A DNA stretch of 64,000 nucleotides, taken from NCBI RefSeq assembly GCF_013167455.1, contig NZ_CP038328.1; one strand, written 5' to 3'. Each line of letters starts with the position of its first letter. The stretch's first letter is position 1. Below are positions 8,379 to 36,816 of this stretch, piece by piece. The notes under the pieces were generated by a model. The model saw nothing but the letters and a program-made list of their open reading frames with translations. It made no database searches and was not told the origin of the DNA. The position numbers and the translations under genes were made by a program. This stretch comes from Escherichia coli O157:H7. Its GTDB lineage: Bacteria > Pseudomonadota > Gammaproteobacteria > Enterobacterales > Enterobacteriaceae.

Positions 8379-9213
8379 GGCTTACCCCCTTGCTGACTGG
8401 TTTTACCTGTGCCCTGACGTGCTGCACGTGACGGGCAAATTTCTGCTCCCACTGAACCTGCGTGAAAACCTTCCCCTCCGCCATCCAGTAATCCCGGAAT
8501 GCGGCAAGCTCAGCAGGTGTAAACTCAGGCTCAGGCAGAGCCATACCCCACAATGCAGCCCGCTGTCGAAAATCCAGCGACGGCCGCCAGACACCAGTCA
8601 TCGGAAATTTCCCGATCGGTTCGCTCAGGCCATCCGGGTATTCAGGTTCTGCTGTCTGCAACGGCGCGCCATTCGACTCACTGGCTGGAGCACTCTCGCG
8701 CATGCGCGCGTTATGTGTGGGGTTTAATTCTTTATCTGTATCTGTATCTGTCGTGACTTGTCGTGACATATGCGTGACGCGTCGTGACTCATCGTGACAA
8801 TCAGTGTTCTGCTCCCGCAGTCTTTCCCGCTCCCGCTGCGCTCTCTTGCGCTCTGCCGGGGATTTTGCGGTTTGCGAAACATTACCGTTATCCTCCTTCA
8901 TCACCTGGCGTTTTTCCCATCCGGAAATAAGATCGCCATCCAGAACTCGCCCCTGCATTGCATGCAAAATTGAATCAATCACGTCTTCCGTCACATCAAG
9001 CGCACTTGCTAAATCTTCCGTCGTGACATCAATGTGACCACGTAGTGACTCGCCGTGACATTTCGTGACATTTCGTGACGCACTCACCAGAAGGTGGATA
9101 TACACCGCCATCACTGTTGCGATTGGCTGTCCTGAGACCCTGGCAATGGTTCGCCATTTGGGATCATTTGGCATGTCATGCCACAATCTGAGCCAGGCAT
9201 TAGCCATACTCAC
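8170..9213 (-). CDS. Replication initiator / replisome organizer (O-like; DnaT-like C-terminal region)
   Basis: 347 aa; N-terminal WLRLWHDMPNDPKWRTIARVSGQP...ISGWEKRQ resembles the phage replisome-organizer N-domain; contains two iteron clusters. Confidence 0.6.
   Translation of the reverse strand: MSMANAWLRLWHDMPNDPKWRTIARVSGQPIATVMAVYIHLLVSASRNVTKCHGESLRGHIDVTTEDLASALDVTEDVIDSILHAMQGRVLDGDLISGWEKRQVMKEDNGNVSQTAKSPAERKRAQRERERLREQNTDCHDESRRVTHMSRQVTTDTDTDKELNPTHNARMRESAPASESNGAPLQTAEPEYPDGLSEPIGKFPMTGVWRPSLDFRQRAALWGMALPEPEFTPAELAAFRDYWMAEGKVFTQVQWEQKFARHVQHVRAQVKPVSKGVSHAAPGGTASRAVQEIRAAREQWERENGFISNGNGLEAVGTYGGGVFEPLDPEERGCAVEALDCSDWRDD
8751..8797. repeat. Iteron cluster A: 5 copies of (T)CGTGAC, preceded by TCTGTA repeats (putative origin inside O-like gene)
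   Basis: TCGTGACttgTCGTGACatatgCGTGACgcgTCGTGACtcaTCGTGAC read directly. Confidence 0.6.
9019..9080. repeat. Iteron cluster B: 6 GTGAC-containing repeats
   Basis: TCGTGACatcaaTGTGACcacgtaGTGACtcgcCGTGACatttCGTGACatttCGTGAC read directly. Confidence 0.55.
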
Positions 9214-33921: not shown

Positions 33922-34281
33922 TTACAGACCTTTATGCGCCAGCATTGGTCCCAGCGGACGGCCACCCAACAAGTGCATATGGATGTGGTAAACCTCTTGT
34001 CCGCCATGGCGGTTGGTGTTCATGATCAGACGATAGCCATCTTCGGCAATACCTTCTTGCTCAGCAATTTTTGCCGCTACGGTGATCATGCGTCCCAGCG
34101 CCTGCTCATGCTCAGCTGAGACGTCGTTCACAGTCGGAATGAGGATATTCGGAATGATCAGAATATGCGTTGGCGCTTGCGGCGAAATATCGCGAAACGC
34201 CGTTACCAGATCATCCTGGTAGACGATATCGGAGGGGATCTCACGACGAATAATTTTGCTGAATATAGTTTCTTCTGCCAC
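33922..34281 (-). CDS. hinT: Purine nucleoside phosphoramidase HinT (HIT family)
   Basis: HIT motif HIHMHLLGG; start at V(M)[13 protein letters not shown]. Confidence 0.9.
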
Positions 34282-34514
34282 GACATTTTCCTTTTTCAAA
34301 TAGCCATGCGTTGCGCCATGCTACGCCGCGCCACACTGCGAGTATAGAGTATGGTCGAGTTAAACCTGCTCTTTCAACCTTAACTCACGATTTCTTAAGC
34401 AAAAAATCGTTTTGCTGCCGTATATATCTCCATTATTCCCATTTCTGCCTGCGAATGCGCTGAAAAGACATTCTCTGTTTGGTTTACACGACAAATATGA
34501 ATGCGTATATTTCT

Positions 34515-34538
34515 CATTTGCATTTGCATTTGCATTTG
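34515..34538. repeat. Tandem hexamer (CATTTG)x4 in fhuE promoter region
   Basis: CATTTGCATTTGCATTTGCATTTG read directly, about 90-110 bp upstream of the fhuE ATG. Confidence 0.8.
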
Positions 34539-34626
34539 CAAGCAAAATTATTCGCACACTAAATATAACCGCTCATCACCCTCCTCCGGCATGAGCCTGA
34601 CGACAACATAAACCAAGAGATTTCAA

Positions 34627-36816
34627 ATGCTTTCAACACAATTTAACAGGGATAATCAATATCAAGCCATCACCAAACCGTCACTACTTGCCGGTTGCAT
34701 AGCACTGGCACTATTACCTTCTGCCGCTTTTGCTGCACCAGCCACTGAAGAAACGGTGATTGTTGAGGGTTCAGCCACAGCTCCAGATGATGGCGAAAAT
34801 GATTACAGCGTAACGTCTACCTCTGCGGGTACCAAAATGCAGATGACTCAACGTGATATTCCTCAGTCGGTCACTATTGTTAGCCAGCAGCGGATGGAAG
34901 ATCAGCAGTTACAAACGCTGGGCGAAGTGATGGAAAACACGCTGGGGATCAGCAAAAGTCAGGCGGATTCCGATCGTGCTCTTTATTATTCCCGCGGATT
35001 CCAGATCGATAACTATATGGTTGATGGTATCCCCACCTATTTTGAATCGCGCTGGAATCTGGGCGACGCACTTTCTGATATGGCACTGTTTGAACGCGTA
35101 GAAGTAGTGCGTGGCGCGACAGGACTCATGACCGGGACGGGTAATCCATCTGCGGCAATTAATATGGTTCGAAAACACGCGACCAGTCGTGAATTTAAAG
35201 GCGATGTCTCGGCGGAATACGGTAGCTGGAACAAAGAACGGTATGTGGCGGATTTACAAAGCCCACTCACCGAAGACGGTAAAATCCGCGCGCGAATTGT
35301 CGGCGGCTACCAGAATAACGACTCATGGCTGGACCGCTACAATAGTGAAAAGACCTTCTTCTCCGGCATTGTCGATGCTGATTTAGGCGATCTTACGACG
35401 CTTTCAGCCGGTTACGAATATCAGCGCATTGATGTTAATAGCCCAACCTGGGGCGGTTTACCGCGCTGGAATACTGATGGCAGCAGCAACAGTTACGATC
35501 GCGCACGCAGTACCGCACCTGACTGGGCGTACAACGATAAAGAGATCAACAAGGTCTTTATGACCCTGAAGCAGCGGTTTGCTGATACCTGGCAAGCGAC
35601 ACTGAATGCCACCCACTCTGAAGTCGAATTTGACAGCAAAATGATGTATGTCGATGCCTATGTAAACAAAGCGGATGGTATGCTGGTTGGGCCATACAGT
35701 AATTATGGACCTGGCTTTGATTATGTCGGCGGCACCGGTTGGAACAGTGGCAAACGTAAAGTTGATGCGCTGGATTTGTTCGCTGACGGTAGTTATGAAT
35801 TGTTTGGTCGTCAGCACAATCTAATGTTTGGTGGCAGTTACAGCAAACAAAACAATCGTTACTTCAGTTCATGGGCCAACATCTTCCCGGATGAAATTGG
35901 CAGTTTCTACAACTTTAATGGCAATTTCCCACAAACCGACTGGTCACCACAGAGCCTGGCGCAGGACGATACCACACATATGAAATCGTTATATGCTGCC
36001 ACTCGTGTCACCCTTGCCGATCCGCTGCATCTGATCCTCGGCGCACGTTATACCAACTGGCGGGTTGATACGCTGACTTACAGCATGGAGAAAAACCACA
36101 CCACGCCTTACGCTGGTCTGGTGTTTGACATCAATGACAACTGGTCGACCTACGCCAGCTATACCTCTATTTTCCAGCCGCAAAATGATCGTGACAGTTC
36201 AGGCAAATATCTGGCTCCAATCACCGGTAACAACTACGAGCTGGGTCTGAAATCGGACTGGATGAATAGCCGTCTGACCACCACGTTAGCCATCTTCCGT
36301 ATTGAGCAGGATAATGTCGCTCAGTCCACCGGTACACCTATCCCCGGCAGCAACGGCGAAACCGCCTATAAAGCGGTGGATGGGACAGTCAGTAAAGGGG
36401 TGGAATTTGAACTCAACGGCGCAATTACCGACAACTGGCAGCTGACATTTGGCGCAACGCGCTATATTGCAGAGGATAACGAAGGAAACGCCGTTAATCC
36501 TAATCTGCCACGCACCACGGTTAAAATGTTCACCAGCTATCGGTTGCCTGTCATGCCAGAGTTGACAGTCGGCGGTGGTGTTAACTGGCAAAATCGCGTG
36601 TATACCGACACCGTGACACCGTATGGCACCTTCCGCGCCGAGCAAGGTAGCTACGCGTTGGTGGATCTCTTCACCCGCTACCAGGTGACGAAAAACTTCT
36701 CGTTACAGGGGAACGTCAATAACCTGTTCGACAAAACCTACGATACCAACGTGGAAGGTTCTATCGTCTACGGCGCACCGCGTAATTTCAGCATTACCGG
36801 CACGTATCAATTCTGA
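34627..36816 (+). CDS. fhuE: TonB-dependent ferric coprogen / rhodotorulic acid receptor FhuE
   Basis: 729 aa; signal peptide, TonB box, C-terminal aromatic residue. Confidence 0.95.
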   Translation: MLSTQFNRDNQYQAITKPSLLAGCIALALLPSAAFAAPATEETVIVEGSATAPDDGENDYSVTSTSAGTKMQMTQRDIPQSVTIVSQQRMEDQQLQTLGEVMENTLGISKSQADSDRALYYSRGFQIDNYMVDGIPTYFESRWNLGDALSDMALFERVEVVRGATGLMTGTGNPSAAINMVRKHATSREFKGDVSAEYGSWNKERYVADLQSPLTEDGKIRARIVGGYQNNDSWLDRYNSEKTFFSGIVDADLGDLTTLSAGYEYQRIDVNSPTWGGLPRWNTDGSSNSYDRARSTAPDWAYNDKEINKVFMTLKQRFADTWQATLNATHSEVEFDSKMMYVDAYVNKADGMLVGPYSNYGPGFDYVGGTGWNSGKRKVDALDLFADGSYELFGRQHNLMFGGSYSKQNNRYFSSWANIFPDEIGSFYNFNGNFPQTDWSPQSLAQDDTTHMKSLYAATRVTLADPLHLILGARYTNWRVDTLTYSMEKNHTTPYAGLVFDINDNWSTYASYTSIFQPQNDRDSSGKYLAPITGNNYELGLKSDWMNSRLTTTLAIFRIEQDNVAQSTGTPIPGSNGETAYKAVDGTVSKGVEFELNGAITDNWQLTFGATRYIAEDNEGNAVNPNLPRTTVKMFTSYRLPVMPELTVGGGVNWQNRVYTDTVTPYGTFRAEQGSYALVDLFTRYQVTKNFSLQGNVNNLFDKTYDTNVEGSIVYGAPRNFSITGTYQF

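Follow-up and report, generated by a model that had tools for sequence, protein, structure and literature searches.

The CATTTG array upstream of fhuE in Escherichia coli O157:H7 is a known variable-number tandem repeat (VNTR), the typing locus TR4, also named O157-25 and VNTR-25. We hold it highly probable that this VNTR has been expanded by slippage immediately past the -10 hexamer of the fhuE promoter, in the zone where Fur is cross-linked to the DNA, and that it is a largely neutral, clade-informative microsatellite and not an on/off switch. A link between the typing repeat and the fhuE promoter and Fur site appears to be absent from the literature that was searched. Throughout, the window is the whole stretch of DNA analysed (64,000 nt of contig NZ_CP038328.1), and positions are those of the window.

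The array and the fhuE promoter

Read directly from the window, positions 34515-34538 are CATTTGCATTTGCATTTGCATTTG, a perfect (CATTTG)4. Tandem Repeats Finder gives an extent of 34515-34540 (period 6, 4.3 copies, 100% matches) and a score of 52, which is the joint top score in the 64-kb window. We therefore list the feature, without strand, as a hexanucleotide VNTR of (CATTTG)4 plus CA at 34515-34540, on the basis of the sequence read, Tandem Repeats Finder, primer matches and polymorphism. A search tolerating up to three mismatches finds the pattern at a single place in the window, and none of 100 dinucleotide-preserving shuffles contains it. The array lies upstream of fhuE, 89-112 nt before its ATG, and the opposite strand reads (TGCAAA)n. 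An earlier note on this DNA had reported a perfect four-unit repeat some 90-110 bp upstream of the fhuE start, and both the repeat and its distance are borne out. Other short tandem repeats are clustered at 8729-8798 and 9054-9079: TCTGTA (3.8 copies), a 10-mer (4.9 copies) and CGTGACATTT (2.6 copies), the last being perfect and also scoring 52. This cluster would fall in prophage Sp6 if the window is collinear with strain Sakai.

According to the RefSeq annotation of identical records, fhuE (34627-36816, forward strand) is intact and encodes a 729 aa TonB-dependent outer-membrane receptor for ferric coprogen and rhodotorulic acid. Its divergent neighbour is hinT (33922-34281, reverse strand; same source), and the array is at least 234 nt upstream of the hinT start codon. 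A consensus scan predicts a sigma-70 promoter for fhuE at 34483-34511 on the forward strand (10/12 matches), made up of a -35 hexamer TTTACA (34483-34488), a 17-nt spacer and a -10 hexamer TATATT (34506-34511), and both hexamers are conserved in every strain compared. The array begins 4 nt past the predicted -10 hexamer and the same scan places the transcription start inside the first repeat unit, at about 34516-34520. Because the array is past the -10 hexamer, copy number alters the length of the 5'-UTR and operator and not the -35/-10 spacing. The 330-nt intergenic region of Sakai is identical to that of the window. In this whole region the sole differences of Sakai from BL21 and Crooks are a 12-nt expansion and three SNPs, at 34429, 34538 and 34542.

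Identity with TR4/O157-25/VNTR-25

The locus is reportedly the same under three names: TR4 (given by Noller in 2003), O157-25 (Keys, 2005) and VNTR-25 (PulseNet; Hyytia-Trees, 2006). TR4 has been equated with O157-25 in print (PMC3768571). The TR4 primers and the TR4 unit, TGCAAA, were taken from PMC2246123; primer GCCACACTGCGAGTATAGAG matches exactly at 34330-34349 on the forward strand and primer GGTGATGGCTTGATATTGA matches exactly at 34656-34674 on the reverse strand. The PulseNet VNTR-25 primers are printed in PMC8461963, and the published amplicon range is 122-192 bp. Here too the matches are exact, with the reverse primer at 34457-34492 (forward strand) and the forward primer at 34557-34590 (reverse strand). 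All four primers thus have 0 mismatches and one site each in the window, flanking the array. The VNTR-25 amplicon (34457-34590) is 134 bp at n=4, which is inside the published range, and amplicons of 122-192 bp correspond to about 2-13 copies, the range met in complete genomes. The units also agree, as the reverse complement of CATTTG is CAAATG, a rotation of TGCAAA. Primers, the 6 bp unit TGCAAA, amplicon range and clade-typical polymorphism all show that the array in the window is the same locus as TR4/O157-25/VNTR-25, and we found no difference between them.

In a literature search that excluded the original locus papers, no paper was found that ties fhuE to TR4/O157-25 or to O157 tandem repeats, and a search for the mutation rate of O157-25 gave nothing useful.

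Copy number among E. coli genomes

A 341-nt intergenic query matched 5,425 of 5,426 complete E. coli genomes, with matched lengths of 341, 347 and, mostly, 329 nt. The length differences in the alignment are whole hexamer units, all multiples of 6. Alleles were counted by BLAST against the complete genomes with synthetic queries made of the 60-nt flanks from the window and 2, 3, 4, 5 or 7 units. The identity bands obtained in this way are valid for differences of up to three units; larger differences split the match and inflate the band at or above 99%.

Alleles with 3 to 13 copies are present in approximately 300 of the 5,426 genomes. The census gave about 41-44 records with three units (including strain 86-24), 92 with four (including Sakai), 120 with five (including EDL933, TW14359, EC4115 and Xuzhou21), about 15 with six and 24 with seven (including PA20), where the counts for three, six and seven units are approximate and were cross-checked by record span lengths. 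Single records have nine units (C1-057) and thirteen units (strain 7409, for which the sequence was read directly), and four O157 records have two perfect units. Among the matches listed, carriers of 3-13 units are mostly labelled O157:H7 or have a comparably large genome. The earlier note had proposed that copy number be compared among strains; among O157:H7 it ranges between 2 and 13 and changes by whole 6-nt units, and invariance is refuted.

The flanks within the VNTR-25 amplicon are essentially constant among alleles, with the exception of position 34541, which is A or G. The 7- and 13-unit alleles (strain 7409; cattle strains 113-141) have CAGGC and not CAAGC directly after the array, and this flank SNP at 34541 marks a sublineage with long arrays.

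Published medians for O157-25 are 7, 4, 3, 5 and 4 in clades 2, 3, 7, 8 and 12, respectively (PMC10062581). Copy number is therefore clade-typical, which suggests that the locus changes slowly enough to track lineages and is not subject to rapid switching.

Some records in this survey stand apart. Five of the matches to the intergenic region are in plasmid-classed records, and a single genome among the 5,426 is without the region. The matched gene of strain Z1323HEC0393 (NZ_CP148357.1) bears no annotation beyond 'TonB-dependent receptor plug domain-containing protein' and is possibly a truncated fhuE. E. coli MSB1_4I, isolated from a human rectal sample, lacks about 56 bp of the common two-unit allele, at about 34488-34555 of the window. 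Lost with them are the predicted -10 hexamer, the repeat units and the flank downstream of these, and the fhuE ORF is still annotated.

Origin of the array

Seven non-O157 reference strains (MG1655, W3110, BL21, W, KO11FL, Crooks and CFT073) have CATTTG CATTTA at this position (CATTTGCATTTA). The same form is present in ATCC 25922 and others, and in nearly all genomes outside the set with 3-13 copies. O55:H7 strain CB9615 has two perfect units, CATTTG CATTTG CAAAC (CATTTGCATTTG), and O157:H7 strains have (CATTTG)n followed by CAAGC or CAGGC. The O55:H7 lineage of CB9615 is regarded as the progenitor of O157:H7. As O55:H7 has two perfect units, a single A>G change would have preceded the expansion: at 34538, in the O55:H7/O157:H7 lineage, it would have perfected the second unit. 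Expansion and contraction by whole units through replication slippage would then have given the 2 to 13 copies among O157:H7. One A>G change followed by gain and loss of whole units is the simplest history that the alleles suggest. That slippage is the mechanism we infer from alleles that differ by whole units, together with general knowledge of microsatellites; on this point the slipped-strand reading of the earlier note was right, and the variation itself was already known. A scan of genome contigs for the conserved flanks with a variable gap between them matched, among species, only the E. coli species representative.

Fur binding and Fur dependence of fhuE

A 12.4-bit Fur site has been predicted at fhuE at K-12 coordinate 1160880 (Chen et al., 2007; PMC2189734), which maps to the -10 hexamer. 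In the Fur pan-regulon study (PMC10164565) there is a ChIP-exo footprint for fhuE at 1160863-1160895 in MG1655 and there are 13-nt peaks in seven further strains. When Dataset 2 of that study is remapped onto the window, the region with Fur is 34494-34538 (no strand assigned). The fhuE start is at 1161551 in NC_000913.3. The MG1655 footprint was placed by an offset between versions.2 and.3 of NC_000913 that we take to be 777 nt. The footprint, AATATGAATGCGTATATTTCTCATTTGCATTTA, takes in the -10 hexamer and both ancestral units, and its counterpart in the window is 34494-34514 together with the two hexamer units of K-12. The peaks of W3110, BL21, W, KO11FL, Crooks and CFT073 could be mapped directly and have their centres 95-105 nt before the ATG. 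For the seven two-unit strains, MG1655 included, the mean peak centre is 101.7 nt before the ATG (sd 3.8); in these strains the Fur peak is over the -10 hexamer and first unit.

The Sakai peak coordinates in PMC10164565 refer to NC_002695.1. The offset to NC_002695.2 was derived from strong Fur boxes, the best ones under three other Sakai peaks (efeU, +130; ECs1374, +128; and yncE, +129). The iha site gave +146 from a weak box, and peak P50, in prophage Sp6, could not serve for calibration. The length of NC_002695.1 is presumably 5,498,450 nt, which gives a length difference of 128 nt between the versions and agrees with the calibrated offset. With the inferred offset of +128 to +130, the 13-nt peak of Sakai (n=4) is at 34524-34536, 91-103 nt before the ATG, and its centre (34528-34530, 97-99 nt before the ATG) is inside the array. 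This centre is about 4 sd away from where anchoring to the -10 hexamer would put it, and within about 1 sd of where a fixed distance to the downstream flank would.

Taken at face value as NC_002695.2 coordinates, the Sakai peak would be inside the fhuE coding region on a Fur-like box with 14/19 matches; this placement was dropped after correction for the NC_002695.1 offset. Within the 64-kb window the 19-bp Fur consensus is matched best by the box itself, AACAGGGATAATCAATATC at 34645-34663 (14/19), which lies within the fhuE coding region 18-36 nt past the ATG and overlaps the site of the TR4 reverse primer. Of the eight published ChIP-exo peaks, none has its centre there after coordinate correction. 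A separate observation concerns Sakai peak P50 (1574434-46), whose label gives an intergenic position, with ECs1554 and ECs1555 on either side. In NC_002695.2 (1574000-1575000 was examined) the peak is within ECs_1552, the Sp6 tape-measure gene, whichever plausible offset is applied, and some peak labels, or the mapping of reads in prophages, may be unreliable in the Fur ChIP-exo dataset.

Fur is listed as bound at fhuE in both iron-replete and iron-starved conditions ('R/S') in Sakai and in the replete condition only ('R') in the seven other strains (PMC10164565). In the same study fhuE is de-repressed 8- to 330-fold in fur deletion mutants. The log2 fold change of fhuE, fur deletion against wild type in iron-replete conditions, is 8.38 in Sakai, and in the seven two-unit strains it is 5.02, 6.15, 6.14, 3.89, 5.61, 5.29 and 3.02 (PMC10164565, Dataset 4); these values cover eight of the nine strains tested, none being reported for strain 042. 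Relative to the mean of fepA, cirA, fiu, entC and fes, the fhuE change is +2.0 in Sakai and -2.1 (sd 0.9) in the others. These data also show that repression by Fur is kept with the four-copy allele of Sakai.

The earlier note had expected the fhuE promoter to be Fur-regulated, and strong repression is indeed found in all eight strains with a reported value. It had also raised the question of overlap with promoter elements and proposed Fur footprinting: the array adjoins the predicted -10 hexamer, and the published ChIP-exo peaks, once remapped, are within or beside it. Taken together, the data suggest that the array would occupy the region of the transcription start and early 5'-UTR of fhuE, within the zone of Fur cross-linking in vivo.

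Possible effects of the array on fhuE

It is possible, if rather unlikely in our estimate, that longer arrays hold more Fur, or hold it more tightly, and so change the amplitude of fhuE repression and de-repression. Each CATTTG (GCAAAT on the opposite strand, 4/6 against the Fur hexamer GATAAT) would add, exactly in 6-bp register, to the weak Fur sites clustered over the -10 hexamer. The hexamer model of the Fur box is said to be due to Escolar et al. in 1998. The array shares with Fur-box hexamer arrays and clusters of this kind (also Chen et al., 2007; PMC2189734) a 6 bp periodicity, a register with Fur-like 19-mers over the -10 hexamer and in vivo occupancy by Fur at or beside the repeat, and Fur sites are known to cluster at exactly 3- or 6-base spacing (PMC2189734). 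It differs in that the fhuE units match GATAAT at only 4/6 positions and the 19-mers of the array match at only 10/19. We used a simple 19-bp consensus, GATAATGATAATCATTATC, and not a position weight matrix, and the matches are weak: around the array they reach at most 11/19 over the -10 region and 10/19 in the array itself. In every allele the in-phase 19-mers across the -10 region score 9, 11, 11 and 10 of 19. Each added unit brings one further in-phase 10/19 site, and off-phase 19-mers in the array reach only 3-7; a score of 10/19 or better is found in just 1.6% of the 19-mers of the window. The array could therefore extend the Fur-site cluster, to judge from these consensus matches. Consistent with this, Sakai has its peak centre in the array, some 4 sd from the -10-anchored position of the seven two-unit strains, is bound 'R/S' where they are bound 'R', has a log2 change of 8.38 against 3.0-6.1 elsewhere (relative change +2.0 against -2.1, sd 0.9) and differs in cis from BL21 and Crooks by little, the 12-nt expansion and three SNPs. 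These features are hints of an altered Fur operator, and they suggest that the array may not be neutral. However, the data for an expanded allele come from one strain in one study in which genetic background, the three linked SNPs and baseline counts are uncontrolled, and near-zero baseline counts can also yield a large fold change. A 10/19 consensus match is weak, the Sakai mapping hangs on an offset (+128 to +130) that was itself derived from three Fur sites elsewhere, and the constant distance of the peak from the downstream flank is fitted equally well by a fixed downstream site. Because each unit is weak against the Fur consensus, a role of the units themselves as regulatory sites is unproven. 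A quantitative effect of copy number on fhuE expression is likewise unproven. The reading given in the earlier note stands for a slipped-strand array in a Fur-regulated promoter; its suggestion of a regulatory-site array holds as far as overlap with the promoter and Fur peaks, and the units are weak Fur matches.

Three further explanations were considered. As the 5' end of the fhuE mRNA, the array would have TGCA palindromes at its unit junctions that could form a 5'-terminal hairpin growing with copy number, and this could alter mRNA stability or 5'-end-dependent decay independently of Fur. The predicted transcription start is in the first unit, the minimum-free-energy fold of the 5' UTR puts the array in a local hairpin with about 3.5 kcal/mol of predicted stability gained per extra unit, and the same hairpin is predicted in single-stranded DNA. 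We nevertheless consider this improbable: the fold of the whole 5' UTR does not surpass that of shuffled sequence (z = -0.88), the hairpins of the array do not outdo shuffles of equal composition, the accessibility of the Shine-Dalgarno/AUG region is predicted to be unchanged (0.68-0.71 for every allele), the transcription start is itself a prediction and there is no Rfam match in 34250-34700. A perfect simple-sequence repeat beside the promoter of a surface receptor gene is also the typical setting of a contingency locus, in which copy number would switch fhuE on and off at high frequency. Such repeats near the promoters of surface genes are typical of the contingency loci of Haemophilus and Neisseria, and the 7-bp repeats upstream of Haemophilus influenzae hmw1A and hmw2A and the TAAA repeats upstream of Neisseria nadA are examples of expression tuned by a repeat. 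As in these cases, the fhuE array is a short tandem repeat of a surface-protein gene that stands between or beside the promoter elements and the start codon, and it could in the same way grade expression, but its copy number is slow enough to be a clade marker. In a phase-variable contingency locus, changes of unit number would be expected to alter the -35/-10 spacing or the reading frame. The fhuE array is past the -10 hexamer and outside the -35/-10 spacer, it is outside the coding region and has a unit length that is a multiple of 3, its copy number is clade-typical and identical in many related isolates, and fhuE is still normally Fur-regulated in the four-copy strain. Gain or loss of units would thus leave both the promoter spacing and the fhuE reading frame intact, which argues that the array is not an on/off phase switch, and we regard switching as very improbable. 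Finally, RefSeq (PGAP) annotates a 60-aa 'hypothetical protein' with a TTG start at 34412-34594 on the forward strand, in which the array is read as (FA)n, and it is annotated in O157 genomes with at least four units, reaching 78 aa in strain 7409. That this is a real small protein is scarcely credible. The ORF is of low complexity, starts with TTG, has no predicted upstream promoter and overlaps the fhuE promoter. Additionally, its annotation is absent at two or three units among the records listed and the ORF is unannotated in K-12-type genomes. The appearance of the annotation only from four units upwards suggests a length-threshold artefact created by the VNTR, and the ORF is probably an annotation artefact.

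Significance of the locus

Our preferred reading remains that of a known, largely neutral VNTR that has expanded past the fhuE -10 hexamer. As a sequence feature alone the array is a confirmation, being one of the eight PulseNet MLVA loci for outbreak typing of O157:H7. What the analysis modestly adds is that a repeat in routine use for genotyping overlies the start region, bound by Fur, of a gene for a xenosiderophore receptor, and that Sakai, the sole O157 strain with both Fur ChIP-exo and fur-mutant RNA-seq data, differs at fhuE from the seven two-unit strains. We regard the position of the array over the Fur-bound start region, together with the atypical behaviour of Sakai, as a modest, testable lead and not as a finding. 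It is doubtful that VNTR-25 copy number is other than neutral and sets the length of the fhuE Fur operator and 5' leader, such that clades with 3, 4, 5 and at least 7 copies would differ heritably in the iron shut-off and induction of the coprogen/rhodotorulic-acid receptor. If the repeat does cause the difference seen in Sakai, the thousands of existing MLVA and genome records would be a ready genotype table for a regulatory polymorphism in iron acquisition.
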